Source: an uncultured Eubacteriales bacterium
Lineage (GTDB): Bacteria; Actinomycetota; Coriobacteriia; Anaerosomatales; JAUVQN01
Assembly: GCA_964406675.1 (NCBI GenBank)
Contig: CAYOSP010000007.1
Location: forward strand, 6,096-49,507
Reading direction: 5' to 3'
DNA length: 43,412 nucleotides
Each line of letters begins with the position of its first letter. Positions within the stretch are counted from its first letter, which is position 1. The notes beneath the pieces were generated by a model that was not told the origin of the DNA, did no database searches, and saw only the letters and a list, made by a program, of their open reading frames with translations. Made by a program: the position numbers and the translations under genes. Below, one piece after another: positions 11,407-29,934 of the stretch.

Positions 11407-11501
11407 GCCGACGGTGACGCTCGAGCTCCCCCGGCTCCCGCGGGGCGGACGTACGACGTCCCGGACGACCTTCCGGTGAGGCGATACTTCGGCTGTGATC
11501 G

Positions 11502-12755: not shown

Positions 12756-12758
12756 ATC

Positions 12759-13607
12759 ATGAGGAAAGCGATGTGTGCCGCCGTCGTCGTCGTTGTGGTG
12801 CTCGTCTTCGCCGCTCCGGCTTTCGCGATAGACGGCGAGACGATCCCTCACGGCGGCTACTCGGCATCGACGGATGCGTGTCTGCAGTGTCATGACATAC
12901 ATGAGTCGGCCGGCGACTACGTACTGATGCGCCAGGCGACCGTGACCGCGACCTGTGCCACGTGTCACACGATCTACCAGACCGCGCCCACCGGCGCTTT
13001 CGATCCCGGTTACTCGGGTACGGAGGCCGGCACGGCCGCGGGCGCCCAGGCCTACAAGACCGACGCGGCTAACGCGCTCACGCACGAAGGCCACCGTCTC
13101 GGTCTTGGTTCCGGCGCCTACACGTTCGCCGACGGAGTGGTCGGTGACGGTTCATATATCCCGGGAGGTACCCAGGCGCTTACCGCCATCGCGTACCTGT
13201 CCTACCCTGTGACCGACAGTGCCCTCTCGTACGCGGCGACCGACGGACTCTACTGCGCGAGTTGCCACGCGCCGCACGGCACGTTCGGGAACGTGGTGGA
13301 CGCGCTGGTGTCCCCCGCGATCCTGTCGTCCAAACCCAACCACATCGACACCGCCATCCCGATGGCCAACTGGATCGACGACGGCGGAGAGTGGTGTGCG
13401 GGGTGTCACGACAAGCGTATCGACGGGGTGGACATGGAGGGCGATACCAATCACAACCATCCGTCGGAGGCCTGCCTGACCTGTCACGGCGACGCCTTCG
13501 GCGATTCCACGCCCGACTTCCCGCATACCGGCGAGGTCGCCAACCTACTCACGCTGGAACCCGACATGCTGTGCCTGCAGTGCCATACCGAGGGCACGCT
13601 GCCGTAG
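12759..13607 (+). CDS. Secreted hexaheme cytochrome c, OmcS/CwcA-like motif layout
   Basis: Sec signal ending APAFA; six CxxCH (CLQCH, CATCH, CASCH, CAGCH, CLTCH, CLQCH); RBS AGGAGGTGA. Hexaheme status is directly visible; the family assignment is by motif order. Confidence 0.9.
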   Translation: MRKAMCAAVVVVVVLVFAAPAFAIDGETIPHGGYSASTDACLQCHDIHESAGDYVLMRQATVTATCATCHTIYQTAPTGAFDPGYSGTEAGTAAGAQAYKTDAANALTHEGHRLGLGSGAYTFADGVVGDGSYIPGGTQALTAIAYLSYPVTDSALSYAATDGLYCASCHAPHGTFGNVVDALVSPAILSSKPNHIDTAIPMANWIDDGGEWCAGCHDKRIDGVDMEGDTNHNHPSEACLTCHGDAFGDSTPDFPHTGEVANLLTLEPDMLCLQCHTEGTLP

Positions 13608-13647
13608 TGACGGCGGTCGAATCTCCGGAAGGAGGACTGAGATAGAC

Positions 13648-14211
13648 ATGAACAAGCTGAGCAACAAGATCGCGCTCGTGGCGATCGCCACCACACTGTT
13701 CGTCGTCGGTCTCGGTGCGACCGCCGTGTTCGCCGCCTTCGATAGCGGCAACTACCAGCAGTCGCATCTCGACTCGAATACGATCACCAACGCCGAGTGC
13801 ATCGGGTGCCACGGGCAGAAGGCCAACCAGCCCTCGCTCGACCCCTTCACGTTCTCGGCGCACAAGAAGCACCTGAAGACCGCGTTCCTGCGGTTCCAGG
13901 TCATGGACGACGGCTGTGGCACGTGTCATGTCTCGACCGACATCGAGCAAGGCTCGGGCGCCACGGTGAACAAGCAGGTCGACGCTGCGTTCTGTCAGAC
14001 CTGCCACGGGCAGTTCCCCGCATCACTGCACGGCGGAGAGAACCTGGCCGTGACGAGCCCGCGCGGCTGCACGGCGTCGGGTTGCCACACGGACCCGGGC
14101 GCGATCCATGCGAGCGTCGAGTACGTCAACCAGTTCTTCGTGTTGTCCAGGACCTACTGCACGAAGTGTCATGGCGGACTGCCGTTCTTCGCGGCAGAAG
14201 AGACGAACTAG
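13648..14211 (+). CDS. Exported or membrane-anchored multiheme cytochrome c (4 CxxCH + 1 CX4CH)
   Basis: N-terminal hydrophobic helix; CIGCH, CGTCH, CQTCH, CTKCH plus CTASGCH; RBS AAGGAGG. Confidence 0.9.
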   Translation: MNKLSNKIALVAIATTLFVVGLGATAVFAAFDSGNYQQSHLDSNTITNAECIGCHGQKANQPSLDPFTFSAHKKHLKTAFLRFQVMDDGCGTCHVSTDIEQGSGATVNKQVDAAFCQTCHGQFPASLHGGENLAVTSPRGCTASGCHTDPGAIHASVEYVNQFFVLSRTYCTKCHGGLPFFAAEETN

Positions 14212-14225
14212 AGGAGGTGTAGAAC

Positions 14226-14723
14226 ATGGCCATGGGATTCAAGGTCGATCTCAAGAAGTGCGTCGGCTGCAAGGTCTGCGAGATGTCGTGTAAGACCCGC
14301 TTCGATCTGCCGCTCGGCGACCGTCGTCGTCGTGTCTACACCGAGGAGACCGGTACGTATCCGGATACCTCAGTGAGATTCGTCTCGATGGCGTGCAACC
14401 ACTGCTCCAGCCCCGCATGCGTCGCTGCGTGCCCGAAGAGCGCGCTCGTCCGTGACGAGGTCGACGGAGTCGTGAAGCACGACAAGGCCGCATGTGTCGG
14501 TTGCCGCCGCTGTGAGTGGGCGTGCCCTTACGGCGCGGTCACCTTCAACAGCGAGACCGGCAAGGTAGACAAGTGCGAGGCCTGCTACCGCTACGCGGAA
14601 GGCCCCAAGTGCGTCGCCAACTGTCCCGGTGGCGCCATCGAGTGGACCGACGTCACACCTGCCGATGCCGTCACCGGTGTCGACATGACCCTGACCGACC
14701 CGAACATCGAGTTCGTCGAGTAA
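14226..14723 (+). CDS. 4x[4Fe-4S] electron-transfer subunit (DmsB/PsrB-like)
   Basis: Four Cys groups: CVGCKVCEMSC, CNHCSSPACVAACP, CVGCRRCEWACP, KCEAC...KCVANCP. No signal peptide. Confidence 0.95.
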   Translation: MAMGFKVDLKKCVGCKVCEMSCKTRFDLPLGDRRRRVYTEETGTYPDTSVRFVSMACNHCSSPACVAACPKSALVRDEVDGVVKHDKAACVGCRRCEWACPYGAVTFNSETGKVDKCEACYRYAEGPKCVANCPGGAIEWTDVTPADAVTGVDMTLTDPNIEFVE

Positions 14724-14739
14724 CAAGGAGGTGAATTCC

Positions 14740-17565
14740 GTGCAAATCACCCGTAGGACCTTCATGAAAGGTGTCACCGCCGGCGCCGCGCTCCTCGCGA
14801 TGGAGGGGCGGCTGAATCTCTTGACGTCCGGCACAGAGTCGACCCTGGCGGACACGACGCACGTCAACTACGTCTGCAAGATGTGCTCGGCCGGCTGCAA
14901 GGCGCAAGCCAGGGTCGTGGACGGTGTCGTGACCGAAGTCTTCGGCATCGACGCCAGCCAGACCGCTCGCGGTCGCGTGTGCACCAAGGGGCACTCGGCG
15001 GTACGGCTGTACAAGAATCCGCGGCGCGTCACGAAGCCGCTCATCCGTACCAACATGAGCAAGGGCCCGGGCGTCGATCCCCAGTGGCGCGAAGCCTCGT
15101 GGGACGAAGCCATGGGAGTGATCGCCGATAGGATGAAGACCGCGGTCGCGGATCACGGCGGCAAGTCCATCGTGCTGGCCATGCGTCCGAGTCCGGGCGA
15201 CGTGACCAATCGACTGGCCGTCTCGCTCGGCACGCCCAACGACATGTGTCACCACGACACGTGTTACACGAGTCAGGATCTCGCATGGGCCGTCACGGCT
15301 CACGGCGCTGATGTCGCCGGCGCCTGGACGACCTATACCGAGACGACGGACTACACGCTCGATGACGGCGCCGGCACCATCACTCGTGTCGGCGGCGGCG
15401 CCATCGAGGCCGGCGGTTACGCGTACGTGATGTACGTCGGGACCGACGGTAATCGCTACACGGACTTCGTCGAGTTCGACACCGACACCCAGGATCTGAG
15501 TGCGCCGATCGATCGTGGCGCCAAGACGCCCGAGGTGCGGAGCAAGCCGACGAAGAAGTCCGGCCGTAACTGGACGCACGACATCGCGCGTTCCAAGTAC
15601 ATCGTGGGCTTCGGCTGGGATATGCCCGGCAAGGCAAAGAACATGATGGCGCAGGACTTCCTGTATGCGATCAACGACGGCGGCGCCAAAGCCGTGCTGT
15701 TCGACCCGCGTTTGTCGAGCACCGCCGCGGCCGCCAAGAACGCCGGCGGCGAGTGGATCAAGGTCAAGCCGGGCTCGGATCTCGCTATCGCGTTCGCGAT
15801 GATGAAGGTCATCATCGGCAACGGTATCCACACGATCGACGGCGGCAACGGCCGCTGGAACAGGACCTACTGCGGCACCTATGCCGCTCCAGCCGACGGC
15901 GTCTCCGGTTTTCCCGAGCTCATCGACCACATCAAGACCAACGCGTTCGCCGGTGAGGACGGCTCGATCCCGGGCGGTCTCGGCGATGGTTCCCCTGCCG
16001 ACATCGATGCGGTGTGCGCGTGGGCCGAGACCAAGAGCGGGGTTCTTGCGGCCGACATCAAGCGTATCGCCGAGGAGTTCTCGACCGAATCCAACTGGCC
16101 CGCGTACGTCCCGAGCCACAAGCGTGACGCCGCCGGACCGAACTATCGCAACTCGTTCGAGCTGGCCCATTCGTTGGTCATACTCAACGGGCTCGTGGGG
16201 TCGCTGGACCGCCTCGGCGGTTCGGTGAAGCAGCGCCAGCACTCGACGAAGAACCTCGGCTGGCTGTGTCCGGCCCCGGACGTGCACCTTCCCACGTACG
16301 AGCGGATCGACCACCTGCATCGCTATCCGATCCAGTGGAAGATGAACAAGGGCTCGTTCCAGTACATCGCGGACGCGATCCTCGACGAGGAGCCGTATCC
16401 GATCGATGTGGTGCTCTTCCGCAAGTACAACCTGCTGGCTCTCCCCGACGCCCCCAAGTACTACGAGGCGCTCAAACGAGTCTTCGTCGTCGCCGTAGAG
16501 CTCCAGATGTCGGAGACGGCACAGATGGCCGACGTCGTGCTGCCGGAGACGTTCTGGCTCGAGGGCCGTGGCTGGGACAAGGCGACCTACTTCGCCCTGT
16601 GGCCGCAGATCATGGTCACCGAGGGCAAGATGCCCAAGCTCCATCCGAACACCGATGACTCGACCGTCGCGGGCGCCGGTCAGAAGGGCTGGCGCGACAT
16701 CCTGATGACGGCGTTCCCGAAGGCGTTCGGCGAATGGGTCAACCCCGACACCGGACATACCGTGAAGGACTTCTTCCGGATGAACGTCGGCGGAGGGACG
16801 TTCGATCCGAGCGGCACCCCGATCTACGAGGATCCTCGCGGGGCGAGCAAGGCCTACGACGACGAGGTCCTCAAGCAGCTCGGTACCGACCTCGGTGACT
16901 CGTCGCTCGCATCGGGCGGATGGAGTTACATCGCCGATCAGGCGAACTTCGCCGATGGCCTGTATCCCGCTTCGGGAGGCGATAACTTCAACCTGGTCGG
17001 CGGCACGTTCCCGGTCGATCAGAAGACGTTCGCTCCCAAGTACGGTGTCACGGGCAAGCCGGTGTACCTCTACTCACCGATGCTCGAAGCATACGGCTAC
17101 GATCCGCTGCCCGTGTGGAAGGAGCGTCGTCAGGAGAAGACGGGCGACTTCGACCTCTACATGGTCACCGATCGTCCGCCGAGCCACATCCACTCGACCA
17201 CGCAGGATCTCGATTACAGCTCCGAGATCTACGACGAGAACGTGTTGTGGATGAATCCGACGACGGCAGCGGCCAAGGGCATCGGCAACGGCGATACCGT
17301 GACCGTGGAGTCCATGTCGCGAGGCAGTGGTGGCGCGGAGCGTTCGTACCAGATGCGTGCATTCGTCACGGAGCGGCTCATGGCGGATGTCGTGTGCATC
17401 CCGCACGGCTTCGGTCACTGGAGCCGTGACTATGCCGACTACGCGAAGAAAGGCCAGAACGACGGGGATCATATCCCCACCGTGTCTGTGACGGAGATCC
17501 TCTCCGAGAACACCCCGCAGCCCGGTGCGCGGATGACCGACGTCGTTCTGAACGTGTACAAGTAG
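14740..17565 (+). CDS. Tat-exported Mo/W-bisPGD oxidoreductase catalytic subunit, most like the Psr/Phs/Srr group
   Basis: GTG 14740 after AAGGAGGTGA; Tat motif TRRTFMK; FS0 CKMCSAGC...CTKG; probable Cys ligand in TPNDMCHHDTC; DPRLSSTA, VKPGSDLA, SETAQMADVVLPE, HIHSTTQ, MNPTTA, PHGFGH. Substrate cannot be determined by eye. Confidence 0.9.
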   Translation: MQITRRTFMKGVTAGAALLAMEGRLNLLTSGTESTLADTTHVNYVCKMCSAGCKAQARVVDGVVTEVFGIDASQTARGRVCTKGHSAVRLYKNPRRVTKPLIRTNMSKGPGVDPQWREASWDEAMGVIADRMKTAVADHGGKSIVLAMRPSPGDVTNRLAVSLGTPNDMCHHDTCYTSQDLAWAVTAHGADVAGAWTTYTETTDYTLDDGAGTITRVGGGAIEAGGYAYVMYVGTDGNRYTDFVEFDTDTQDLSAPIDRGAKTPEVRSKPTKKSGRNWTHDIARSKYIVGFGWDMPGKAKNMMAQDFLYAINDGGAKAVLFDPRLSSTAAAAKNAGGEWIKVKPGSDLAIAFAMMKVIIGNGIHTIDGGNGRWNRTYCGTYAAPADGVSGFPELIDHIKTNAFAGEDGSIPGGLGDGSPADIDAVCAWAETKSGVLAADIKRIAEEFSTESNWPAYVPSHKRDAAGPNYRNSFELAHSLVILNGLVGSLDRLGGSVKQRQHSTKNLGWLCPAPDVHLPTYERIDHLHRYPIQWKMNKGSFQYIADAILDEEPYPIDVVLFRKYNLLALPDAPKYYEALKRVFVVAVELQMSETAQMADVVLPETFWLEGRGWDKATYFALWPQIMVTEGKMPKLHPNTDDSTVAGAGQKGWRDILMTAFPKAFGEWVNPDTGHTVKDFFRMNVGGGTFDPSGTPIYEDPRGASKAYDDEVLKQLGTDLGDSSLASGGWSYIADQANFADGLYPASGGDNFNLVGGTFPVDQKTFAPKYGVTGKPVYLYSPMLEAYGYDPLPVWKERRQEKTGDFDLYMVTDRPPSHIHSTTQDLDYSSEIYDENVLWMNPTTAAAKGIGNGDTVTVESMSRGSGGAERSYQMRAFVTERLMADVVCIPHGFGHWSRDYADYAKKGQNDGDHIPTVSVTEILSENTPQPGARMTDVVLNVYK

Positions 17566-17600
17566 GGATCGTTCTTCCCTACCGTATGAGGGTGTGGAGT

Positions 17601-17636
17601 ACCCCGGTCGATCCGGTCCGACGGGTCGACCGGGGT
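17601..17636 (+). terminator. Stem-loop after the molybdoenzyme gene (terminator or mRNA-stabilising hairpin)
   Basis: ACCCCGGTCGATCCG-gtccga-CGGGTCGACCGGGGT, 15-bp stem with one G-U pair, weak U tail. Confidence 0.65.
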
Positions 17637-17703
17637 CGCCCTTTCCACCACACCGTCCATCGTCACCCCGCATGCACGCCGCTTCCGAGTGAGAGGATCG
17701 ACC

Positions 17704-18384
17704 TTGACGAAGCAGACCACGGCACGGATGTCGCAACGGGCGCTCGCTCTGGCGGGAGCCGCCGTCATGTTGTCCAGGTTGTTCTGGACCCCGCTCACCC
17801 GGGACACGCTCCTCGCCATGCGGGACGGAGACGAGTTGGACCACTTGTCCGAGTTCTTCGGAGTCCTCGGGAAGGACGTCTCACGCCACGTCGCCGGGCT
17901 GAAGGATCGACTCCGGGACTCGGAGATCGGTGTGGTCGAGCGCGACCTCAACGTCGACGCCACGTATCTGTTCAAGATCGGTTTCGAGGACTTGCCCGCT
18001 CCTCCGTACGGTTCGGTGTGGCTCGAGCCGGAGGGTCTGCTGATGGGGAAGACGACCGCTTCGGTGGCGCTCGCCTACAAGATCCAGGGCGTGGAGGTCG
18101 ACACGGACACCGCGGACACCATCCCCGACCACCTCTCGCGCGAACTGGAGTTCGTCGCGCACATGTACCGGAGGTACACCGAGGCGGTGGACGCCGGAGA
18201 CGATGAGGCCGTCGAAGCGGTGGAGGAAGCGACGCGTGGGTTCTTAGACACGTATTGCTTGCCGTGGTGGCCTTCGTTCGCGACCGCCGCGGGGGAGCAC
18301 GCGCGGACGGACTTCTTTCGAACCGCGAGTGATCTGCTCCTCGAGTTGTGCGACGCGCTGACGGAGGATCGCGGGACCGCGTAG
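17704..18384 (+). CDS. TorD/DmsD-family molybdoenzyme maturation chaperone
   Basis: APPYGSVWL and IPDHLSRELEF motifs; directly downstream of the Tat molybdoenzyme. TTG 17704 has a GAGGA RBS (alternative start 17689). Confidence 0.9.
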   Translation: MTKQTTARMSQRALALAGAAVMLSRLFWTPLTRDTLLAMRDGDELDHLSEFFGVLGKDVSRHVAGLKDRLRDSEIGVVERDLNVDATYLFKIGFEDLPAPPYGSVWLEPEGLLMGKTTASVALAYKIQGVEVDTDTADTIPDHLSRELEFVAHMYRRYTEAVDAGDDEAVEAVEEATRGFLDTYCLPWWPSFATAAGEHARTDFFRTASDLLLELCDALTEDRGTA

Positions 18385-18408
18385 CGGTCCTCGTCAAGGG
18401 ACGAGCGC

Positions 18409-19707
18409 TCAGTAGAAGCCGCTGAACCTTCTCTCGCGCGCCGCGCACGGAGGACAGAGCTTTCGGGCGCGCACGTCGTTCACAGGTACGGCGTTCACAG
18501 GCACGTCCCTCCCGGTGGATCGCGCATCCTTCACCGGTTCCGTGTCTCCGTGGGACACTCCGTACCCGGCGCCGCACGTCTCGCAGATCGCGTGTTCCAG
18601 CGAAAGGAGCCGCAGCGGGTTGCCGAGGAGTCGTCGCACGGGTCGGGCCACCATGTCGATGGCGTCGACCCGGCACAGGGCGGCGCACGTGCCGCATCCG
18701 ACGCATCTGTCGGGTCGCAGGCCGAGACACCACGAATCGTCCGTATCCCTCAGGACCAGAGCTCCCGTGGGACAGAGGCGCGCGCAGTCCCCGCAGCCGA
18801 TGCACCGTTCAGCGGAGACCCGCGGACCGAGGGTGGACAGCGCGCCCGGCTCGGGGTTCCGGGCTTCGAGTCGGAGCACGCCGGCCTGCTCGAGGCTCCG
18901 CAGCGTTCGCACGAACAGCAGTCGATCCAGGTTGTCCGAGGTCCCTCCTCGTGCGGGAGGCTCGGGGGGACCCGTGCTCGGGGCCTCGCCGGTCGGAGCC
19001 TCGCCGGTCGGAGCGAGGTCGCGGACGAGGGAGAGGACGTCTCGAGCCACCATGCCGAACGCCTCCCGCCTACCGATCGGCACCGATCGATCGGCGGGTT
19101 CTGTGACCCGTGGGTCCGCGGCATGTCCCGGGCGCGTGAAGGAGGTGCGATCCGGGTCGAGCCGGAGAACGCCGGGTGCGCCCATGGATCGGAGTACGGC
19201 CCCGACGTACTCGATGCGTGTGAGCAGCAACGATCTCGAGGCGGGGGCTATGCCGCACCCGGCGCAGTCTCCGGGAGCGAGCATCGTCGTTCCGTCTTCG
19301 GATCCCGCCAGAGCGAACAGCACCCCGTCGCTCACCGCGTGCAGGCACCCTATGTCCACCATGTCCTCCCCGGAAGGGTCCGGGTGTGCCGCACACGTGA
19401 GCACGGTCCGGGTCCTCTGCCGTGCGCTCGCGAGCAGTTCGCGGATGGACGCCTGGAGTCCCGGCGGTCTGCGTACGGCGCCCATCGGGCAGGCCGAGAC
19501 GCACGCGCCGCAGGCGGAGCACGACGTCCTAGCATCCTCTGAGAGGTATGCGTCGCCGTCACGGAACGGAAGGCCCGCTCGGCATGCCTCGACGCACGCG
19601 TCGCACGCTCGCCCCACCGCCGTGCGCAAGCAAGTCGAAGGGTCGAGCGTCACTCCGTCGCGGTCGAATCGCGCCTGGATGGCTTCGAGTGGTTCCACAC
19701 CGTCCAT
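18409..19707 (-). CDS. Polyferredoxin / 4Fe-4S binding protein
   Basis: CDACVEAC, CSACGACVSACP, CIGCGDCARLCP, CVGCGTCAALC, plus CETC...CPPC at the C-terminus. Confidence 0.85.
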   Translation of the reverse strand: MDGVEPLEAIQARFDRDGVTLDPSTCLRTAVGRACDACVEACRAGLPFRDGDAYLSEDARTSCSACGACVSACPMGAVRRPPGLQASIRELLASARQRTRTVLTCAAHPDPSGEDMVDIGCLHAVSDGVLFALAGSEDGTTMLAPGDCAGCGIAPASRSLLLTRIEYVGAVLRSMGAPGVLRLDPDRTSFTRPGHAADPRVTEPADRSVPIGRREAFGMVARDVLSLVRDLAPTGEAPTGEAPSTGPPEPPARGGTSDNLDRLLFVRTLRSLEQAGVLRLEARNPEPGALSTLGPRVSAERCIGCGDCARLCPTGALVLRDTDDSWCLGLRPDRCVGCGTCAALCRVDAIDMVARPVRRLLGNPLRLLSLEHAICETCGAGYGVSHGDTEPVKDARSTGRDVPVNAVPVNDVRARKLCPPCAARERRFSGFY

Positions 19708-19928
19708 TTGCCGTCTTCCGGGGCCGGATGTCAACCGGCGCCGTTGACGGGCATTCGCCCTTGAGCAGGCCGATCAACAGTTCGTACGACATCAGAGCCA
19801 TCCGTAACAGCCTGTGGGTTCTCTTGCGTGGAACGCGTAGGATGATAAGCAAGCTCGGTTCATGCTCGACAAGGAGGTGAAGCGGTGACACCTCCCTGTC
19901 TTCTTGTCTGTTCGTCGGAAGGGTTCGT

Positions 19929-20642: not shown

Positions 20643-20659
20643 CGGAGTTGGAGACAGGC

Positions 20660-22238: not shown

Positions 22239-22738
22239 TGCCGACGCATGCCCGGCATACCGAGAGGAGCCGGAAGGTGTTCACGTGGGCGGTCGTTCTG
22301 GCCTGCCTCGTGTGCGTATCGTCGGCGATCGCCGTGGCCGCGGGACAGACCGAGAAGCCTGACGACCACACCGATCAGTGGCAGTGGCTCCACGGCCGCG
22401 AGTACGTGCGCGACTCGGCGAGATGCGACGGGTGCCACGAGCCGATGAGTTGTCGCACGTGTCACCTTGTCGACTACCCGCACCCGCAGGATTGGCAGGG
22501 ACGTCATGGCGCCGAGGCGCTCGCGATGCGGTTCAGAGGATGTAGCCTGTGCCATAGGGACTCGTTCTGTGACCCTTGTCACGGGGGGGTCACCATGCCT
22601 CACCCGGAGGACTATCTTCGCACCCACTCGCGCGGCGGCGATGTGATCGAAGCGTGCGGTACGTGCCACCTCTCGACGGACTGTGACGGTTGTCATGATG
22701 CGCACGCATCGCACGGATGGGGAGGCGCGTCTCCGTGA
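22238..22738 (+). CDS. Small exported hexaheme cytochrome c built from three di-heme repeats
   Basis: ATG overlaps the upstream TGA; signal peptide (AIAVAA); CDGCH, CRTCH, CSLCH, CDPCH, CGTCH, CDGCH. Confidence 0.9.
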   Translation: MPTHARHTERSRKVFTWAVVLACLVCVSSAIAVAAGQTEKPDDHTDQWQWLHGREYVRDSARCDGCHEPMSCRTCHLVDYPHPQDWQGRHGAEALAMRFRGCSLCHRDSFCDPCHGGVTMPHPEDYLRTHSRGGDVIEACGTCHLSTDCDGCHDAHASHGWGGASP

Positions 22739-23595
22739 GTCGGACACGCACACGAGGGACCCTCGGCAAGTCGCTCGTCGCGCTCCTCGCTCTCTCGGTG
22801 GTGTTCATGGCGGCGGTGCTCGTCATCGCGCTGTCGTTCCCGGCGGGGACTCGCGCCATCGGCGCTCGTCTCCAAGCCGGGTATCCGGGCATGGTATCGC
22901 CGCTCGCTTCGCTGGCTTCCGAGGTCGGATCCCTCCCGGTCGTCGTCGCCGCTCGGTGGAGGGCCCGGGTCATCCAGCCGCTCGGTCTGGCGGCCGAGCC
23001 CGACGAACGAGAAGAGCTCGCGGAGCCCGATGAGGAGCACGACCGCCTGTGGGAGGGCTGTTCCGAGTGTCATCCTCATTGGGAGAGTCGTCCGCTGCAC
23101 AGCGTGGTGTACTTCGACCACGAGACGCACACGACCGCGGGAAGCGAGTGCGCGGACTGTCACGAACCGATCGGACTCGCGCGCGATCGCGTCCCTCCGA
23201 TGCAAGGGTGCGGGTCATGCCACGAGACATGGATCCGGTCCTCGGCTTCGTGTGTCGAGTGTCATCCGCCGGGTTCCTTGTTCCACGGAGCGGAACTGTC
23301 GGGAAGCCGCTCGATAGCCGACGCGTGCGAGACGTGTCATCCGCCATCCGTCCGTCTCGCATCTCCACGTGCACACGACATGCCCGCCTTCTCGGCGACC
23401 GACGAAGCGGGCTGTGAGGTCTGCCACACCTCGAGTGGATTCTGTGACCGGTGTCATCCCGCTCCGCATCCCACGCTCTACGGGTCCGTGCACCACGAGG
23501 AGATCCGGAACGGGGAGGTCAGCATGGTAGATTGCTATCAGTGTCACGACCCGCGGTACTGTGTCGGCCGATGTCATACGAAGACCGAGCGATGA
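22735..23595 (+). CDS. Membrane-anchored multiheme cytochrome c (8 CxxCH + 1 CX3CH)
   Basis: GTGA overlap with the upstream gene; N-terminal TM; CSECH, CADCH, CGSCH, CVECH, CETCH, CEVCH, CDRCH, CYQCH, CVGRCH; FDHETH c3/c7-type motif. Confidence 0.9.
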   Translation: MSRTRTRGTLGKSLVALLALSVVFMAAVLVIALSFPAGTRAIGARLQAGYPGMVSPLASLASEVGSLPVVVAARWRARVIQPLGLAAEPDEREELAEPDEEHDRLWEGCSECHPHWESRPLHSVVYFDHETHTTAGSECADCHEPIGLARDRVPPMQGCGSCHETWIRSSASCVECHPPGSLFHGAELSGSRSIADACETCHPPSVRLASPRAHDMPAFSATDEAGCEVCHTSSGFCDRCHPAPHPTLYGSVHHEEIRNGEVSMVDCYQCHDPRYCVGRCHTKTER

Positions 23596-24521
23596 GCGAT
23601 CCGGACACGCCGAGATACCGACAGATCCACGCACTCACGAGGCTGCTGCTGCGGGTGTCCGTGATCGGGACGATCCTCGCCATGGCGGCGGGGATACTCC
23701 TGGCCGTCCAGGTGCTGTCGCGAGCCGATCGAACCGTATGCGGACCCCTGTCTTCCGGTCCTGTGACGACCGTGGTCGTCGCTCGACTGCCTGGCGGGCC
23801 CACCGAGTGGCGCTCCTACATGAAGGCCGTCGAGGTGGTCTCGCGGGTGACCGGCCGTCCCGTAGCGGTCGCGTATGCCGAGAGCACCTCGGAGCTGGAG
23901 CAGCTCCTGCGAGAGCGGCAGGACGCCTATTTCTTCTCGACGACGTACGCGTACCTGTACGCCGAGGCCGAAGGACTCGAGCCGCGGTTGATCGCCGCAC
24001 CCGTCATCCTGGGAAGGACCATGGAATCGGCCTGCGTGGTGGTGTCCGAGTCGTCCCGGTTCGAGGACCTGGAGGATCTGAGGGGGCGGCGGGTCGGTGT
24101 GTCCGATCCGAGTTCACTCGCGGGCACGGCATACCTACTTCGCCTCCTGGACGAATCCGGATACGGTACGCTCCAGGGCTTCTTCGGCTCTGTCGACGCC
24201 GGTCGTTCTCAGGATTCGAACCTGAGGGACGTGCTCGCGGGCGAGCTCGATTGCACCACGGTGAATCGCTCGCAACTCGCCGCCTACCCTGAGGACGCGT
24301 TCCGCATGATCGCACGTTCCCCCGAGTACGGCATGCCGCCGATCATGTGCGGTCCCGAGGTGAGTCGGGAGGAAGCGGACGAGGTGTCCCGGGCGCTCGT
24401 GGACCTCGAACTCGGTCGGGATACACCGATCACCGGCGCGGTGGAGGGATTCTCGGTCCCGACCCCCGACCTCTATGAGTACCCCCGAGGCCTCATGCGC
24501 TACGCGGTGGTGACCGGATGA
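23592..24521 (+). CDS. PhnD/SsuA-type extracytoplasmic ligand-binding protein (probable sensory partner of the kinase)
   Basis: ATGA overlap; N-terminal TM; DLEDLRGRRVGVSDPSSLAG and downstream P-P motif typical of phosphonate-binding-fold proteins; no permease or ATPase genes adjacent. Confidence 0.8.
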   Translation: MSDPDTPRYRQIHALTRLLLRVSVIGTILAMAAGILLAVQVLSRADRTVCGPLSSGPVTTVVVARLPGGPTEWRSYMKAVEVVSRVTGRPVAVAYAESTSELEQLLRERQDAYFFSTTYAYLYAEAEGLEPRLIAAPVILGRTMESACVVVSESSRFEDLEDLRGRRVGVSDPSSLAGTAYLLRLLDESGYGTLQGFFGSVDAGRSQDSNLRDVLAGELDCTTVNRSQLAAYPEDAFRMIARSPEYGMPPIMCGPEVSREEADEVSRALVDLELGRDTPITGAVEGFSVPTPDLYEYPRGLMRYAVVTG

Positions 24522-26098
24522 GGCTTCCCGTGGGCCCCCGGTCGGATCCGGAACGCTCCTCCGGGCGGCGTTCCGGCTCGATCGCGTACAAGCTCGTCGT
24601 CCTGACCCTGCTCGGCGAACTGGTCTTCTCACTGACCCTCGGGGTGGCGGTCGGCGTGTACGTGGCGGAGGAGATGAGGCAGCATACGTTCGCGAGCTAT
24701 AGGCACACGGCGAGCGCGATAGCCGCGAGCTTCATCCCCATGGTCATGGACAAGGATGCCGCGGCGGTCCAGATGCAGATCCAGAGTCTCGTGGAACTCT
24801 CGCCGGAGTCACGTCTGGAGTGTCTGCGTATCGTCGACGGCACCGGTCGCCTGATCGCCGAGGCCGGATCGACCGGGCCGGACTGTTGCGAAACGCAGCG
24901 ATCCGAAGGCCTGGCGGGGTGGCTCGAAGCGGACATCATCGCGTCCCCCCTCTCGGTGAACGATGTCGAGCTCGGTACCGTCACCGCTCAGTTCGAGGCG
25001 GTCCCCCTCTCCGAGACGCTGTTCCCGGCCGTGCTCGTGTCGCTGATCGTGATGGCTTCCGTGAATCTGGTCTCCGTTCCCTGGGTAGCGTGGTTGTCCG
25101 TACGTCTGTTGTTGGAGCCGCTCGCTCAAGTCCAGGACGCCGCGGACGGTCTCTCCGCGGGCGAGAGGGACATCGACGTCGGCGTGGAACGGAACGACGA
25201 GATCGGTCGCCTGGCCCGGACCCTCGATGATCTCGCGGGTCAACTGAAGCGACGCGAGGCGGAACGATCGCGTGCGCTCGCGCGAACACGTGAAGCTCTA
25301 GCGCTCGAAAGGCGCGCGCGAGATGAGCTCCAAGAGATGTCTCGGATGAAGTCCGACTTCATGGCGGTCGCATCGCACGAACTGAAGACGCCTCTCGCTG
25401 CGATCAGGATGTATTCCGAGTTGCTCTCGGAGAGGGACGACATCACCGAACGAGAGGATGTCGGCGAACTCGTGAGCGGGCTCCGTGCCTCGGTCTTCAG
25501 GTTGACATCCATCACCTCGGATCTGCTGGATTCCGCGATGCTCGAGCGAGGGATCATGCCGCTCACTCGCGCGAGCATCGATCTGGTGCAGGTAGCCGGC
25601 GAAGCCGCCTCGGACGCGAACCGTCTCGGTGAGGCGCGAGGGATCGAGGTCGGGTTCGAGACGGAGGTGGACTCCCTCCCCGTGTACGGTGATGCGGTGC
25701 GCCTGCGTCAGGTGATAGACAACCTCACCTCGAATGCGATGAAGTTCTCGTTCGATGGCATGCCGGTCGATGTGAGGTGTCTGAAGGACGAGGATCAGGC
25801 GGTGGTCGAGGTATGCGATCGGGGCACGGGGATCGATCCACGTAAAGCCGAACGCCTGTTCACCCTGTTCGGGCGGCTCGACTCAGCGGACAATAGGAGA
25901 ACCGCCGGACTCGGCCTGGGACTCGCGATCAGTGCACGCATCGTCGAGGCGCACGGGGGGACGATCACCTGGCGCTCTCGGGACGACCTCGACGAGACGG
26001 TGTTCCAGGTGCGTATCCCATCGATGGACGGATCCCTGGAGATATCGCGCTGCGAGGTGCTGATCCTGGACGGGGAGGGTGGTCGAGATGGCCGATAG
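24518..26098 (+). CDS. Membrane sensor histidine kinase (2 TM, HAMP, HisKA, HATPase)
   Basis: HAMP (RNDEIGRLA), H-box ASHELKTPL, N-box NLTSNAMKF, G1 DRGTGI, G2 GLGLGLAI. Confidence 0.95.
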   Translation: MRLPVGPRSDPERSSGRRSGSIAYKLVVLTLLGELVFSLTLGVAVGVYVAEEMRQHTFASYRHTASAIAASFIPMVMDKDAAAVQMQIQSLVELSPESRLECLRIVDGTGRLIAEAGSTGPDCCETQRSEGLAGWLEADIIASPLSVNDVELGTVTAQFEAVPLSETLFPAVLVSLIVMASVNLVSVPWVAWLSVRLLLEPLAQVQDAADGLSAGERDIDVGVERNDEIGRLARTLDDLAGQLKRREAERSRALARTREALALERRARDELQEMSRMKSDFMAVASHELKTPLAAIRMYSELLSERDDITEREDVGELVSGLRASVFRLTSITSDLLDSAMLERGIMPLTRASIDLVQVAGEAASDANRLGEARGIEVGFETEVDSLPVYGDAVRLRQVIDNLTSNAMKFSFDGMPVDVRCLKDEDQAVVEVCDRGTGIDPRKAERLFTLFGRLDSADNRRTAGLGLGLAISARIVEAHGGTITWRSRDDLDETVFQVRIPSMDGSLEISRCEVLILDGEGGRDGR

Positions 26099-26849
26099 GA
26101 TGAAGACGGAGGTGCCCGAGCATCCCCGGATCCTCGTGGTCGATGATGATGCCGAGTTGCTCAGGGCTGTTCGACTCTCGCTCGCCGCGGCCGACTACGA
26201 CGTACTATGTGTCGGCAGTTCCGTAGAAGCGCTGCCGGTCATCCGTCGGACGAACCCACATCTGATCGTCCTGGACGTGATGATGCCGGACGTCGACGGA
26301 TGGCAGATCCTCAGTGCGGTGCGCCAGGAGCCCGCGCCGGTCTCCGGTGCGCTCGTCCTCATGCTCACGGCGAAGGACTCCTTGGAGTCCAAGGTGACCG
26401 GCTTCACTCTGGGCGCCGACGATTATCTGGTCAAGCCGTTCAGCGTGCAGGAACTCCGCTTGCGGGTGGCGGCGTTGCTGCGCAGGTACGGAACCAGTGA
26501 TCGGGCCGGGTCGAGAGCCACGTTCACGGTGGTCAACGGCGCATCGGGTCAGGTCTTGCTCGCCGCGGACGACGTCTTCTACTTCGACGGTGTCCGGAAC
26601 TACTCCTACGCACACACATGGGACGACAAGCGTCTGTGCAAGCTGCGCCTACATGAGGTGGAAGAGGCCGCTCCGAACCACTTCATGCGTGTCCATCGCT
26701 CGTTCATCGTCAACGGCATCCACGTCCGTGGTGGACGCTGGGTCAACAACTCTTCCTACCACCTGGTCCTCGCGGACAAGGACAGGACGGAGATCCCGGT
26801 GAGTCGGCGGGTGACCGCGGACGTTCGACGAGAATTGGGACTGAGTTGA
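26088..26849 (+). CDS. Response regulator, REC + LytTR DNA-binding domain
   Basis: VVDDD, LDVMMP, MLTA, DDYLVKPF; LytTR signatures FMRVHRSFIVN and IPVSRR. Confidence 0.92.
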   Translation: MADRMKTEVPEHPRILVVDDDAELLRAVRLSLAAADYDVLCVGSSVEALPVIRRTNPHLIVLDVMMPDVDGWQILSAVRQEPAPVSGALVLMLTAKDSLESKVTGFTLGADDYLVKPFSVQELRLRVAALLRRYGTSDRAGSRATFTVVNGASGQVLLAADDVFYFDGVRNYSYAHTWDDKRLCKLRLHEVEEAAPNHFMRVHRSFIVNGIHVRGGRWVNNSSYHLVLADKDRTEIPVSRRVTADVRRELGLS

Positions 26850-26934
26850 GCGGGCATGAGCGCGGATCACGCGGACCCGCTCCGGGGTCCGGTGCTCGAC
26901 GATCCGTGTCTCGACGGCGTGTTCTGGAGGACGG

Positions 26935-27798
26935 ATGAGACGATTCCTCGCGAGATGGTTCGGCGGTGACGCGACCAGGGCTGGACTGACCGCGATGCTG
27001 GTCGTGTCGGCGGTCCTGGCGCTCGCTCTGGGGATCGCCACGGTGATCGGTGATCCGCCCGGCGCCGATCCGCGTGACGGTCCGATCGGATCGCTCGATC
27101 CGGACGCGGCGGCAGGGGGGGTCGAGTCGTCCGAGTCGAGGAGCTTGGCCGACTTGTCCGGAGCAGGCGCCGAGTCGACTCAGGCTGTGCCCGCGGACGA
27201 CGACCCTTCGGACGGTGACCCTTCGGGAGCGGAGATCGCCGCGGACCTCGAGGGTCTCCGTTCGGAGCCCGACGATCCGTCCGGCCCCGCCACGGGCGAG
27301 GACCCCGCGGATCTGAACGGCGGTCAGGACGGCGGTCAGGACGGCGGTCCTTCGGAGGATCCGTTCGGAGCCGAGTACCTGGAGGCGCGATGGGGGCAGG
27401 ACGCGCTCCCGGAGATGCTCGGATCGCTGCTCGTCAAGACGCAGGTCTCAGGGGACGGCGATCAGCTGGAAGCCCACTATGCAGGCACTCAGGGATCGGC
27501 GATCGACATCGCGAAGGTCACGATCACCGACGCCGGGTCTTCCGAGGCGGCATCGGAGGAACTCGAAGGGCGCCTGGAGGGGTATCCGGATGCACGACTC
27601 TCGTTCGATCTGGGGACTCGTTCGATCAGGCAGGGGGCCACACTCGAGGAGCATCCGGAGGACTTCCCGCCCGCTCTCCAGTTCGCATGGGTCGACGGAC
27701 GTTACCTGATCCGATGCATCGCCGTACCGGTGCGGCCGGGCGGCGCGGTCTTTGCTCGCGAGGAGATCCTGGGTGCGGTGGCCGCTCTTCCGTACTGA
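26935..27798 (+). CDS. Hypothetical membrane-anchored protein with acidic low-complexity stalk
   Basis: GGAGG RBS; TM helix; Asp/Gly/Pro/Ser-rich region incl. GGQD tandem repeat; globular-looking C-terminal domain. Confidence 0.7.
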   Translation: MRRFLARWFGGDATRAGLTAMLVVSAVLALALGIATVIGDPPGADPRDGPIGSLDPDAAAGGVESSESRSLADLSGAGAESTQAVPADDDPSDGDPSGAEIAADLEGLRSEPDDPSGPATGEDPADLNGGQDGGQDGGPSEDPFGAEYLEARWGQDALPEMLGSLLVKTQVSGDGDQLEAHYAGTQGSAIDIAKVTITDAGSSEAASEELEGRLEGYPDARLSFDLGTRSIRQGATLEEHPEDFPPALQFAWVDGRYLIRCIAVPVRPGGAVFAREEILGAVAALPY

Positions 27799-27813
27799 GG
27801 AGGGAATCTACCG

Positions 27814-29934
27814 ATGCAGGAAGGGATTCGCATGGTGAAGCCGTTCCACGGCGCCGCGTACGCCGCACTCGTCACGATCGTGTTAGCCGCCCTCGTCGTG
27901 AGTGGCGTTCCTTCAGCCGCCGCGACCTCGGACGTCGAACGACTCCCGATCCCCGGTCCGCAGGTCTACGTGGCCGTCGGCGACGAAGCGTTGTACTTCG
28001 GGTCCGATGAGGACGGGGACGGGGATCACGATCTCATAGGCAAGATGCTCGGGACCGCGGGGACCACCGTGATCGCGAGTGGTCCCGGCAACCAGTGGCA
28101 ACCCGCCGTGAACGGCAGAGTCCTCGTGTATGTCGATCAAGCCCCTCCGGATCCAGGCGGAGGCGCGCCGGTGACCTCCAGGGTCGTCGCTCGGGATCTC
28201 ATCACTGGTGCGACCCGGGAGCTCTCCGTGGAAGAGGGGTTGCGATCGAGCCCGACGGTTCACGGCGGACGGGTCGCGTGGGTGGAGGTCGACGAAGGGG
28301 AGAGCGGCTCCATCGTCTACTGTGACCTCGACGTGGACGACGACGGCGTGCCGGACTTCGCGGAAAGCGACGGTCCCGCTCCGTCGGCGCCTCAGGTCGT
28401 CGTCACCGGCCCCGGAGCCCGCTCGCCGAGTCTTGGGAGCGCGGGATTGGTGTATGCCGAAGAAGCGGACGGGGACGTTCGGGTGATGCGCAAGCCGGAT
28501 CCTCCGGGCGCCACGGAGGTGACGGTCGCCGGGTCGACCGGCGGGGTCTCCAAGCCTCGGCCGAGGACGTCTGGAGACCTGATCTGCTGGACCGGGAGAG
28601 CGTCCGGGATCGACAGGGTATACGTGCGCGATCTGAGTGCCGGGACGACGAAGGCGACGAGCTCGTCGGATTCGAGTTCCCGACTCCCGGTCACCGACGG
28701 GACGCGTGTCGCTTGGGTAGAGGGGTACTGGTCCGACACCCCGTCCGTGTGGGTATCGGAAGGCTCGGAGACACGGCGGCTTCACACGGCGGACGGCGTC
28801 GTCGGATCGACGAGTCTCGAGGACGGACTGCTCGCTTGGACCGAGGTCGTCGATGAGAGCACGTTGGATTCGGATGTCTTCTACCACTCGATGACAGGAG
28901 AGGACGACGGCTCCCCTGCGGATGAGGACGAGGGCATCGAGCGTCTCAGTGGCGCCACGCGCTACGACACGGCTGTCGCGATCGCCCGAGAGGCGTTCGA
29001 TCCCGGCGGCGACGGGAAGTGGCCGGGGGTCGCACACGTGGTCATCGCCTCAGGAGCCGACGACCATATGGTCGATTCACTTCCGGCCGCGGGACTCTCT
29101 TGGCTCTACGACGCGCCGCTGCTGATCGCGCATCCGGACCCCGCGAGCAACTCGGCCGCGAAGTCGGTGCTCTCGGAGATCGTGGCGGCGAACGGCTCGG
29201 TGGACCTGCACGTGGTCGGAGGCACGGCTTCGGTCAGCGACGCGGTCTACCGGGATCTGGCCGCGGTCGTTCCGGGATCCGCGACGGCCCCGGATCGGAT
29301 CGCCGGGCCCGACAGATACGCCACGGCGGTGGCCGTGGCGCGTCGGATACATGCTCGCGCGGGATCCGAGGGAAAGGCGACGCCGAACGAGGCGCTCGTG
29401 GCCGCAGCCGTCACGGACGGCAATCTGTTCGACGCGCTCGCGCTCTCCGCCTTGTCGGCGAGACGAGGGGCCCCGGTCCTACTGGTACGTCCGTCGGAGC
29501 TTCCTGAGGTCACACGGAATGAACTGGAGACCCTGGCTCCCGGTACGGTGGTGCTCGCCGGCGGTGAGGGCGCGATCTCGGACACCACGAAGCGGTCGAT
29601 CGACGCAGTGGTCCCGACCACATGCCTCCGGTGGGGTGGAGCGGACAGGTACGCGACATCCGTCGTCATCGCTCGGGAGGCGATCGCGCGCGGTTGGTTG
29701 ACGCCTCGCACGATCGGAGTCGCCGCGATGCTCCCGGACGCTTTGACCGGCGGGGGCGCCGTCGGTCGATCGGGCGGGCCGTTGCTCACCACGAGGTCGA
29801 CGTCGCTGCATCACGAAGTGGCCGGATGGATGTCGGAGAGGCGTGCCGACATCCGCCGTTGCGAGGTGTACGGAGGAGAAGGCGTGTTGTCCGACGGCGT
29901 GTTCAGCGAGATCCGCGCGCTCTTGGGGCTGTGA
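27814..29934 (+). CDS. Cell-surface protein: beta-propeller-like N-terminus + three CWB2 (cell wall binding repeat 2) domains
   Basis: Sec signal; repeats PAVNGRVLVY, PTVHGGRVAW, PVTDGTRVAW; DxDxDG motifs; CWB2 signatures RLSGATRYDTA, RIAGPDRYATA, RWGGADRYATS. Confidence 0.88.
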   Translation: MQEGIRMVKPFHGAAYAALVTIVLAALVVSGVPSAAATSDVERLPIPGPQVYVAVGDEALYFGSDEDGDGDHDLIGKMLGTAGTTVIASGPGNQWQPAVNGRVLVYVDQAPPDPGGGAPVTSRVVARDLITGATRELSVEEGLRSSPTVHGGRVAWVEVDEGESGSIVYCDLDVDDDGVPDFAESDGPAPSAPQVVVTGPGARSPSLGSAGLVYAEEADGDVRVMRKPDPPGATEVTVAGSTGGVSKPRPRTSGDLICWTGRASGIDRVYVRDLSAGTTKATSSSDSSSRLPVTDGTRVAWVEGYWSDTPSVWVSEGSETRRLHTADGVVGSTSLEDGLLAWTEVVDESTLDSDVFYHSMTGEDDGSPADEDEGIERLSGATRYDTAVAIAREAFDPGGDGKWPGVAHVVIASGADDHMVDSLPAAGLSWLYDAPLLIAHPDPASNSAAKSVLSEIVAANGSVDLHVVGGTASVSDAVYRDLAAVVPGSATAPDRIAGPDRYATAVAVARRIHARAGSEGKATPNEALVAAAVTDGNLFDALALSALSARRGAPVLLVRPSELPEVTRNELETLAPGTVVLAGGEGAISDTTKRSIDAVVPTTCLRWGGADRYATSVVIAREAIARGWLTPRTIGVAAMLPDALTGGGAVGRSGGPLLTTRSTSLHHEVAGWMSERRADIRRCEVYGGEGVLSDGVFSEIRALLGL

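Follow-up and report, generated by a model that had tools for sequence, protein, structure and literature searches.

The stretch of DNA analysed here, referred to as the window, is 43,412 nucleotides long and comes from an uncultured bacterium of the Anaerosomatales (assembly GCA_964406675.1, contig CAYOSP010000007.1). It corresponds to G000:C7:6096-49507, where G000 is the genome of the window (1.9 Mb, 61 contigs, 96.6% complete); relative genomes are likewise numbered with a G, and fetched loci with an L. Within the window, which has a GC content of about 67%, positions 12759-29934 hold a block of about 17 kb with 16 genes, defined by translation, motif counts, Pfam, and NCBIfam. The block encodes a Tat-type molybdoenzyme with its iron–sulfur subunit and chaperone, four multihaem cytochromes, a three-gene sensor, and several proteins of scaffold or wall type, and these genes are kept together in related genomes. 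It holds no gene for an NrfD-type membrane subunit. These features suggest a polysulfide or thiosulfate reductase (Psr/Phs)-like enzyme in which multihaem cytochromes may have replaced the usual membrane anchor. The window sequence was found in four DNA runs of one microbial-mat study and in no RNA run.

Gene content of the block

All genes lie on the + strand unless stated otherwise. The catalytic subunit, MoA (14731-17565, 944 aa), belongs to the molybdenum/tungsten–bis(pyranopterin guanine dinucleotide) (Mo/W-bisPGD), or DMSO reductase, superfamily. It matches three molybdopterin domains above the Pfam cut-offs (PF04879, 31.5 bits; PF00384, 67.1 bits; PF01568, 52.5 bits), carries the twin-arginine translocation (Tat) motif TRRTFMK, and is accompanied by a chaperone of the TorD/DmsD family. 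The Tat motif, the FS0 cluster cysteines C49, C52, C56, and C84, and Cys178 are invariant in 13 sequences; Cys178, which we take to be the Mo ligand, aligns with the cysteine of the ArrA motif SHSSVCAEA. MoA falls in a Psr/Phs-like clade. Its best family model is PhsA (NF012032), at 277 bits versus a cut-off of 694; lower scores came from DmsA/YnfE (118 bits versus 777.7), ArrA (NF041714, 118 bits versus 1600), and QrcB (90.7 bits versus 440). The best match in the PDB is Thermus PsrA (E 3.7e-34), with Shewanella ArrA at E 5.7e-23. The substrate motif of ArrA, (R/K)GRY, is not kept; the GRYSH region of ArrA reads MRPSP in MoA. A lineage-specific insertion of 84 aa (residues 193-276) follows the ligand cysteine, and there are several shorter insertions. 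Close relatives are few, with only seven clusters among 5.8 billion proteins (61-71% identity, 813-971 aa), one of them labelled 'Actinobacteria bacterium'; beyond these, identity falls to 36-39% in forms of 737-765 aa.

The electron-transfer subunit FeS (14226-14723, 165 aa) is of the four-cluster [4Fe-4S] DmsB/PsrB type (Fer4_11, 76.8 bits; DmsB equivalog, 144.7 bits, under the cut-off of 214). Its 16 cysteines, arranged in four cluster motifs, are all invariant in 22 sequences. The protein has no signal peptide and starts directly at the first cluster motif, so it would leave the cytoplasm in complex with MoA, as in DmsAB-type enzymes. Adjacent to MoA is the TorD gene (17689-18384; PF02613, 71.5 bits), whose family serves in cofactor insertion and Tat proofreading, and a dedicated TorD is kept in every version of the module. 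A polyferredoxin-like cytoplasmic protein of 441 aa, with no transmembrane segment, is encoded on the - strand at 18409-19734, convergent with TorD. Two + strand open reading frames (ORFs) at 17586-18206 and 18515-19747 are arginine- and serine-rich artefacts of high GC; they overlap the real TorD gene in another frame and the polyferredoxin gene on the opposite strand.

The four cytochromes together hold 6 + 5 + 6 + 9 = 26 haem sites. The c-type hexahaem cyt6A (12759-13607, 282 aa) has six CxxCH motifs, all kept in orthologues, and matches Paired_CXXCH_1 at 65 bits. The pentahaem cyt5B (13648-14211, 187 aa) has four CxxCH motifs and the variant C141x4C146H. The anchored hexahaem cyt6C (about 22235-22738) consists of three CxxCHx4CxxCH pairs, and the membrane-anchored nonahaem cyt9D (22717-23595) has eight CxxCH motifs and a Cx3CH after a linker of about 70 aa that follows its helix. 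Both irregular motifs are haem sites as judged by conservation. In cyt5B, every one of the 21 homologues has C141, C146, and H147, at a spacing of Cx2-5CH, and five distal histidines are invariant as well; because the fifth site is invariant, cyt5B is taken as a pentahaem protein. In cyt9D the extra site, which is Cx3CH and not Cx4CH, is a plain CxxCH in two of three orthologues. Just 15 ORFs in the whole genome have three or more CxxCH motifs, and four of them lie inside the block, which argues that their clustering is not due to chance. The gene content agrees with the first-pass annotation, made from the sequence by a model, which had counted 6, 4+1, 6, and 8+1 motifs and listed the cytochromes, FeS, MoA, TorD, the polyferredoxin, the TPR and NHL proteins, the sensor trio, and the CWB2 protein. 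Each of these genes was recovered at the same position by translation, Pfam, and NCBIfam, with the polyferredoxin gene corrected to the - strand, and the assignment of a Tat-type Mo/W-bisPGD enzyme with a 4x[4Fe-4S] subunit and TorD is borne out by the domains, the invariant cysteines, and the Tat motif.

The families of the cytochromes differ widely in size. The broader cyt6A family comprises 444 representative clusters. The cyt5B family has 19, the window's included, among the same 5.8 billion proteins, and all are at least 54% identical. Two of the 19 are labelled Actinobacteria or Coriobacteriia, and for at least five the longest contig has the same size as that of a MoA homologue; cyt5B thus appears to occur only together with this module. 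The N terminus of cyt6A is weakly NrfH/NapC-like (TIGR03153, 26.4 bits versus a cut-off of 134; PF03264, 17.5 versus 24.1), and the protein reaches 35.7 bits on the DmsE-family model against a cut-off of 192. The NapC/NirT/NrfH family models gave no match to cyt5B. In both proteins the first haem lies 18-21 residues past an N-terminal hydrophobic helix. In cyt6A a conserved AFA|A site resembles a signal-peptidase I site, so the protein may be released; in cyt5B the 23-residue hydrophobic stretch ends in a conserved V-x-A-A-Y and may serve as anchor or as signal. No Pfam or NCBIfam model matched cyt6C, and its look-alikes in the structure atlas are generic c7/paired-CXXCH multihaems.

Structure prediction with AlphaFold2 (AF2) gave a mean predicted local distance difference test (pLDDT) score of 81 for cyt6A and 49 for cyt5B, the latter from 21 close homologues and unusable. 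Against PDB sequences at E <=1, cyt6A returned only two chance-level rows, and a Foldseek search of its model against the PDB at E <=0.001 returned no match, a method of low power for haem-rich folds that have little secondary structure. The OmcS/CwcA-type label for the hexahaems finds no support in the sequence or the fold of cyt6A. A complex prediction for FeS and mature cyt6A (score 0.00, mark 0.32) is evidence neither way.

Beyond the polyferredoxin gene lie the membrane-anchored TPR protein (19929-20642; orthologues 39-43% identical in the relatives G016, G132, and G137) and the membrane-anchored NHL-repeat beta-propeller protein (20648-21718; orthologues 48-50% identical), followed by orf180 (21696-22238), an anchored protein of no known family that is kept at its syntenic position. 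At the far end are unk287 (26935-27798), which is anchored and combines an acidic linker with a C-terminal domain that fits no known family, and the CWB2 protein (27814-29934), which is secreted or anchored. The latter has three CWB2 repeats (PF04122, 147 bits) and a beta-propeller-like N-terminal region, and SlpA and beta-propeller repeat models match it weakly. Structure-atlas look-alikes of unk287 are uninformative. The genes for orf180 and unk287 are two conserved members of the block that add to the earlier gene list. A hydropathy scan shows a single N-terminal hydrophobic segment in cyt6A, cyt5B, the TPR and NHL proteins, orf180, cyt6C, cyt9D, unk287, and the CWB2 protein, and none in FeS, MoA, TorD, the polyferredoxin, or the response regulator.

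The block comprises at least two transcription units, with the convergent polyferredoxin gene and a 194-bp gap in between. From the TPR gene through the response regulator gene, neighbours are spaced by -23 to +5 bases. Upstream of cyt6A, by about 135 bp and in an AT-richer region, two perfect copies of the 11-bp direct repeat GCATAGTCTCG stand in tandem (12603..12625, + strand, 12 bp start to start). The repeat has four matches in the window at one mismatch or fewer, a number reached in 2 of 100 shuffles. As a candidate regulator site it is speculative; no similar motif was seen upstream of cyt6A in G132, nor was any promoter motif common to the window and G132.

The sensor trio lies between cyt9D and unk287. 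It consists of an anchored PhnD/ArrX-like ligand-binding protein (23451-24521; PF12974, 91 bits), whose true start is probably an internal Met and whose one hydrophobic segment lies near residue 64-93; a sensor histidine kinase (24518-26098) with two transmembrane segments and HAMP, HisKA, and HATPase domains; and a response regulator (26079-26849) with REC and LytTR DNA-binding domains. In the AioXSR system, a molybdoenzyme operon has a separate binding protein, kinase, and regulator next to it; ArrX and ArxX are the orthologues encoded next to arr and arx genes, and each binding protein binds the substrate of its own enzyme (PMC5908839). The trio of the block has this same AioXSR/ArrXSR layout. 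Tetrathionate and thiosulfate are instead sensed through PhnD-like domains fused into TtrS and ThsS, as these are described in PMC5408782. The best PDB match of the binding protein is ArrX (E 1.2e-19), ahead of AioX (E 6e-3), and its orthologue in G016 also matches ArrX best (E 2.9e-12). The trio is linked to the module in all four genomes that carry it (G000, G016, G132, and G137), in keeping with the proposal that the block has a sensor of its own.

Co-inheritance, insertion, and the missing anchor

The arrangement of the block is retained, with rearrangements, in three relatives. The window's genome (family f1) has the order cyt6A, cyt5B, FeS, MoA, TorD, polyferredoxin (opposite strand), TPR, NHL, orf180, cyt6C, cyt9D, sensor trio, unk287, CWB2. 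In G016 (f16), where a contig ends within a duplicated cyt6A and the two parts were joined there, the order is sensor trio, cyt6A', cyt6A, cyt5B, TorD, MoA (911 aa), FeS, polyferredoxin, TPR, NHL, orf180, cyt6C, cyt9D, unk287, CWB2. In G132 (f3) the order of G016 holds from cyt6A onward, with the sensor trio divergent and upstream of cyt6A. The polyferredoxin gene is co-directional with the other genes in both G016 and G132. In G137 (f3) the order is FeS, TPR, NHL, orf180, cyt6C, cyt9D, sensor trio, and a cyt6A-like gene. Metagenomes gave one close locus, a contig (L080) on which cyt6A-cyt5B-FeS-MoA recurs with identities of 59-78%. The tandem duplicate of cyt6A in G016 is spread over C1:1-470 and C30:1-1625, the assembly breaking inside the copies. 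In G137, contigs C129 and C59 (L094, L095) show the cyt6A domain inside proteins with 7-8 haems; the ORFs that come next have 12 and 11 haem motifs.

Homologues of the block genes are sparse in the order. At E <=1e-10, cyt6A was found in 5 of 146 same-order genomes, four strongly (G000, G016, G132, and G137) and one (G052) as a short weak match; at E <=1e-8, cyt9D was found in 6 of the 146, again the four strongly, with weak matches in G006 and G040. A search of 401 class-sampled genomes for cyt5B at E <=1e-8 gave six, three of them strong (G000, G016, and G132) and three weak. MoA, searched at E <=1e-20 in the window's genome and 40 same-order relatives from 25 families, was found in 2 of the 41, G000 and G016, the two enzymes being 35-40% identical. 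The synteny in three relatives and the joint occurrence of cyt6A and cyt9D in the same 4 of 146 genomes support the view that these genes form one co-inherited unit.

In G000 the block separates genes that are neighbours in relatives. In seven of seven relatives checked (G001, G003, G014, G016, G019, G020, and G022), NadE lies 0.1-2.2 kb from DeoC-AccD-AccA-Pfk. In G000, NadE and DeoC are 18.6 kb apart, and the interval (window 11407-30019) holds a DUF1284 gene and the whole block; in G016 the block lies elsewhere on the contig that holds NadE-DeoC. The GC content at third codon positions is 0.75-0.88 in the block versus 0.87-0.95 in the flanks. No att-like flanking repeats were found around the insertion, and no tRNA gene or integrase was noticed at 11407-30019. 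This pattern marks the block as an insertion in G000 that came in as one piece, and the block behaves as a mobile unit.

The block encodes no polytopic protein, with a maximum of two hydrophobic segments per protein in the hydropathy scan, and no quinol-oxidising membrane subunit was found in it. The only NrfD gene of the genome lies on contig C8 in a separate, complete ttrBCA-like operon. Because that NrfD already has its own A and B subunits as neighbours, the possibility that the anchor of this enzyme is encoded elsewhere is answered, as far as sequence reaches, and the absence of a membrane subunit implied by the first-pass annotation stands. The C8 locus (C8:46000-62000, L097) is a second molybdoenzyme system, of canonical type. 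It comprises an ArrX-like binding protein, an sCache/HAMP kinase, a LuxR-type regulator, TtrB-like (188 bits), NrfD, and TtrA-like (520 bits, 1069 aa) proteins, and it adjoins a gene for a MOT1-family molybdate transporter.

Relatives of the enzyme point to an NrfD-type ancestry. The comparison covered 76 MoA-related loci from species-representative genomes (22-47% identity over the best segment), with hosts among the Thermodesulfobacteriota, Chloroflexota, ANME-1, Hecatellales, Bathyarchaeia, and others. In tblastn, not one of these loci matched any of the four cytochromes or the TPR, NHL, unk287, or CWB2 proteins. Within 6 kb of the enzyme gene in 42 loci (L002-L043), 29 had an ORF with at least five hydrophobic segments and four had an ORF with at least three CxxCH motifs. 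Among eight polytopic neighbours of the 737-765-aa enzyme forms that were scanned with Pfam, seven were NrfD/DmsC and one was an ArsP-type permease. The permease gene (L026:5902-6936, Dehalococcoidales metagenome-assembled genome (MAG)) lies downstream of a sister-clade enzyme gene and its TorD gene and is a weak hint that some relatives may handle arsenic compounds. Elsewhere, in an unclassified bacterial MAG, about 3 kb separate a sister-clade enzyme gene from an ORF of 1381 aa with 27 CxxCH motifs (L039:6656-10801).

In a quick maximum-likelihood tree, the seven window-type enzymes and two 911-aa enzymes of the G016 type form a clade (SH-like approximate likelihood ratio test, 95) nested among the NrfD-type forms of 737-765 aa, and the group that unites this cytochrome-linked clade with the NrfD-type forms is fully supported. 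With moderate confidence, the cytochrome-linked form of the enzyme would have had one origin followed by strong divergence. That the G016 enzyme is an unrelated catalytic subunit swapped into the module was considered and rejected, since it is sister to the window clade, on a long branch. A Methanocellales MAG (L034:10001-13389) has a MoA relative (39% identity), a 173-aa FeS, and then a pentahaem of NapC/NirT type (PF03264, E 1.4e-8). This archaeal locus appears to be a separately evolved cytochrome-coupled variant, which suggests that coupling to cytochromes arose more than once in this branch of enzymes.

The host appears to be a monoderm, as had been assumed. Omp85/BamA was not found in the 96.6%-complete genome by a search that was positive in 7 of 14 control genomes, and homologues of the flanking NadE carry seven organism labels in 120 listed rows, all Actinomycetota and five of them Coriobacteriia or Coriobacteriaceae. 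WhiB was not found in the genome and gives no taxonomic help. Cultured Anaerosomatales, members of the Coriobacteriia, are described as having Gram-positive walls (PMC9686372). A decarboxylase of mena_SCO4490 type (535 bits, above cut-off), an MqnP-like prenyltransferase, and UbiX lie together at C16:45470-49210 (L098); these late menaquinone genes make a quinone plausible. Across the genome, 13 ORFs have at least four CxxCH motifs. Those outside the block, on C9 (46-54 kb), C17, C18, C20, and C33, have 7 to 21 motifs, and all nine are non-polytopic, seven with a single N-terminal hydrophobic stretch and two with two that are adjacent or overlapping.

A proposed cytochrome-coupled reductase and its alternatives

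We infer that Coriobacteriia have in this block a respiratory island that is complete in itself and moves horizontally. At its core would be a Tat-exported pair of MoA and FeS, matured by TorD and perhaps also by the cytoplasmic polyferredoxin. The enzyme would have lost the NrfD-type quinol-oxidising anchor of its nearest relatives and become coupled to multihaem cytochromes instead. Electrons from menaquinol or another donor would enter through anchored cyt5B and/or cyt9D and pass by way of cyt6A and cyt6C to FeS and the Mo site, where reduction of an anion would take place in the wall zone, on the outside of the cytoplasmic membrane. The likeliest candidates for this anion are sulfur compounds (thiosulfate, polysulfide, or tetrathionate) and oxyanions of Se, As, or Sb. 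The TPR, NHL, orf180, unk287, and CWB2 proteins may serve as scaffold or tether, and the AioXSR-type three-component sensor would switch the island on when the oxyanion is present. The odds that the block encodes such a Psr/Phs-like reductase, with its NrfD anchor replaced by cytochromes, at the outer face of the membrane, and with a chalcogen or metalloid oxyanion as substrate, are put slightly above even, at roughly 0.55.

Several results weigh against this picture. On the side of the membrane, none of the cytochromes scores above a NapC/NirT/NrfH cut-off that would mark it as the electron entry point; an hhalign comparison with a NapC-like neighbour protein reached a probability of only 65-66%. 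In addition, cyt6A and possibly cyt5B have cleavable-looking signal peptides and so may not be anchored. A search of the whole genome gave no MqnA (PF02621), and quinones went undetected in the two cultured Anaerosomatales isolates (PMC9686372). On the side of the substrate, MoA lies under every curated cut-off, so homology cannot tell what it acts on. MoA and cyt5B were not found in G137, an assembly of 170 contigs that is 90% complete, so their absence is unproven. The clade that joins the two enzyme types comes from the quick tree, in which the 911-aa pair sits on a branch of 1.57.

The sensor gives no firmer lead to the substrate. When the AioX pocket residues Y88, C106, Y131, S161, S163, H192, and D210 were compared through a HMMER pairwise alignment to ArrX, which makes the result tentative, two of the seven were kept (the equivalents of Y88 and S161) and the others were changed (C to T, Y to M, S to A, H to Q, and D to N). 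Next to the ttr-like operon is a binding protein far nearer to ArrX (E 8.4e-46) than that of the block, so likeness to ArrX is uninformative about the ligand. An assignment of arsenate as the ligand from this likeness was therefore rejected, and the safe reading is an oxyanion-type sensor.

Other readings place the enzyme farther out or change its role. All 26 haems could form a wall-spanning conduit on TPR, NHL, and CWB2 scaffolds that ends in a molybdoenzyme acting at or beyond the wall on poorly soluble S, Se, As, or Sb species, whether reducing or oxidising them; the block would then be a plug-in respiratory organelle for monoderms and an independent monoderm counterpart of DmsEFAB, reached by exchanging NrfD for cytochromes and moving as one piece. 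We consider this unlikely. In a more specific form, which seems quite unlikely, such a haem chain would end in the catalytic dimer, on or past the wall, as a monoderm DmsEFAB analogue whose acceptor is insoluble or colloidal (elemental sulfur or an Sb or As mineral, for example). There is precedent in the DmsAB of the Shewanella cell surface, fed by DmsE (PMC3820605), and the number of haem sites exceeds what a short link between membrane and enzyme needs. In G016 and G132 the module is likewise accompanied by the CWB2 protein and unk287, and the signal-peptidase-like site of cyt6A might let it be released into the wall zone. However, neither MoA nor FeS has a wall-binding or anchoring domain, no OmcS-like sequence or fold was detected in cyt6A, and the protein family of the sensor binds soluble oxyanions. 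The first-pass annotation had set the catalytic dimer across or outside the wall, and nothing in the analysis places MoA-FeS there. Electron flow might also run in reverse, with the Mo enzyme oxidising an extracytoplasmic donor (arsenite, sulfide, or thiosulfate) and passing electrons to the membrane or to Fe(III) or another external acceptor. The Psr/Arr branch does include the oxidising ArxA, and the genome is rich in multihaem proteins, with the 13 ORFs mentioned above. In the Fe(III) reducer Parvivirga a cluster of multihaem and molybdopterin genes was proposed to act in Fe(III) reduction (PMC9686372, in a brief description), and NHL/TPR/multihaem clusters of Dethiobacter are tied to extracellular electron transfer (PMC10376724). 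The sequence itself does not fix a direction, but the nearest family models (PhsA, DmsA, and ArrA) are those of reductases and strong matches to cyt6A, cyt9D, and MoA in same-order genomes are limited to the four, and this reading, too, is rather improbable.

Two further possibilities concern the unity of the block and the chemistry of MoA. The block could be two unrelated neighbours, a Mo-enzyme operon (cyt6A, cyt5B, FeS, MoA, and TorD) and an operon for extracellular electron transfer (TPR, NHL, cyt6C, and cyt9D onward), in line with its two or more transcription units on either side of the convergent polyferredoxin gene and the 194-bp gap, and with Dethiobacter clusters of NHL, TPR, and multihaem genes, which occur without Mo enzymes as PMC10376724 describes them. 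The halves nevertheless remain neighbours through three different rearrangements, a co-directional polyferredoxin gene joins them in G016 and G132, the 4 genomes with cyt6A, out of 146, are also the 4 with cyt9D, and the whole block was inserted as a single piece in G000, all of which makes two systems very unlikely. It is harder still to credit a cofactor-less module like Qrc or alternative complex III, in which the Mo-like subunit would be a scaffold beside a multihaem cytochrome. Hexahaem, Mo-like, and FeS subunits do recall QrcABC, MoA reaches 90.7 bits on the QrcB model, and cyt9D weakly matches ActA chains (6lod, E 8.7e-6; 6btm, E 0.01). The QrcB score is far under its cut-off of 440, however, the Tat motif, FS0 cysteines, and ligand cysteine are invariant, a dedicated TorD accompanies all versions, and the block lacks the NrfD subunit that both Qrc and alternative complex III require.

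The preferred reading, a cytochrome-coupled Psr/Phs-like reductase, would matter for how such enzymes are read in genomes. Three-subunit iron–sulfur molybdoenzymes are usually taken as A and B subunits with a quinol-oxidising anchor, and here that anchor would have been exchanged for cytochromes and scaffold proteins in a cell without an outer membrane. If the wiring is real, the block offers a natural test case for electron transfer from the membrane of a monoderm to an exported enzyme and would widen the range of acceptors for Coriobacteriia of mats and the subsurface. Annotation pipelines would label these genes 'thiosulfate/polysulfide reductase' or 'hypothetical' and overlook the partner cytochromes. 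Its compact size (about 17 kb), mobility, and built-in sensor should make the block attractive for heterologous expression and acceptor screening.

Comparison with known systems

The closest enzyme relatives are PsrABC and PhsABC. The block shares with them the best family model (PhsA), the best PDB match (Thermus PsrA), a four-cluster B subunit, Tat export, and a TorD-type chaperone. It differs in that it has four multihaem cytochromes instead of NrfD/PsrC, and its MoA is about 180-200 aa longer, with the 84-aa insertion and 277 bits against the cut-off of 694.

The principle of feeding a molybdoenzyme from multihaem cytochromes has precedents. In the CymA-, NapC-, and TorC-fed enzymes (ArrAB-CymA, TorCA, and NapABC), an anchored multihaem quinol dehydrogenase replaces the integral anchor. 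Both cyt5B and cyt6A have the size and N-terminal helix expected of the NapC/NirT/NrfH/CymA group but score under its family cut-offs, and the block has four cytochromes and scaffolds rather than one cytochrome. DmsF is the porin of the diderm DmsEFAB system, whereas the monoderm block has TPR, NHL, and CWB2 proteins in the porin's place. Its enzyme also belongs to another clade, and cyt6A reaches just 35.7 bits on the DmsE-family model. In Shewanella, DmsAB at the cell surface is fed through the multihaems CymA and then DmsE, and like the block it is an A and B enzyme without a quinol-oxidising subunit of its own, placed outside the cytoplasmic membrane compartment (PMC3820605).

Among Gram-positive bacteria, Dethiobacter alkaliphilus has multihaem genes clustered with genes for NHL and TPR proteins, as does the block, which adds a Mo enzyme; according to PMC10376724, Dethiobacter lacks molybdopterin enzymes. 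Within the Anaerosomatales, the cultured Parvivirga hydrogeniphila has a cluster that, like the block, combines multihaem and molybdopterin oxidoreductase genes; its published description takes up two sentences and gives it a role in Fe(III) reduction (PMC9686372). With regard to the sensor, the block departs from AioXSR, ArxXSR, and ArrXSR in its LytTR-type regulator, in a binding protein anchored by an N-terminal helix, and in the two of seven pocket residues that it tentatively keeps.

No characterised system of this make-up was found in open-access papers and bioRxiv preprints, supplements excluded. The earlier claim of an uncharacterised combination holds to that extent, while the principle behind it is not new, given DmsEFAB and the Parvivirga cluster. 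An A and B molybdoenzyme fed by multihaem cytochromes instead of its own anchor is a known principle. The combination is new, and it joins a Psr/Phs-branch enzyme minus NrfD, a dedicated pentahaem seen only here, three further cytochromes, five proteins of scaffold, unknown, or wall type, and an AioXSR-type sensor in a monoderm and in one block that is mobile and inherited as a whole.

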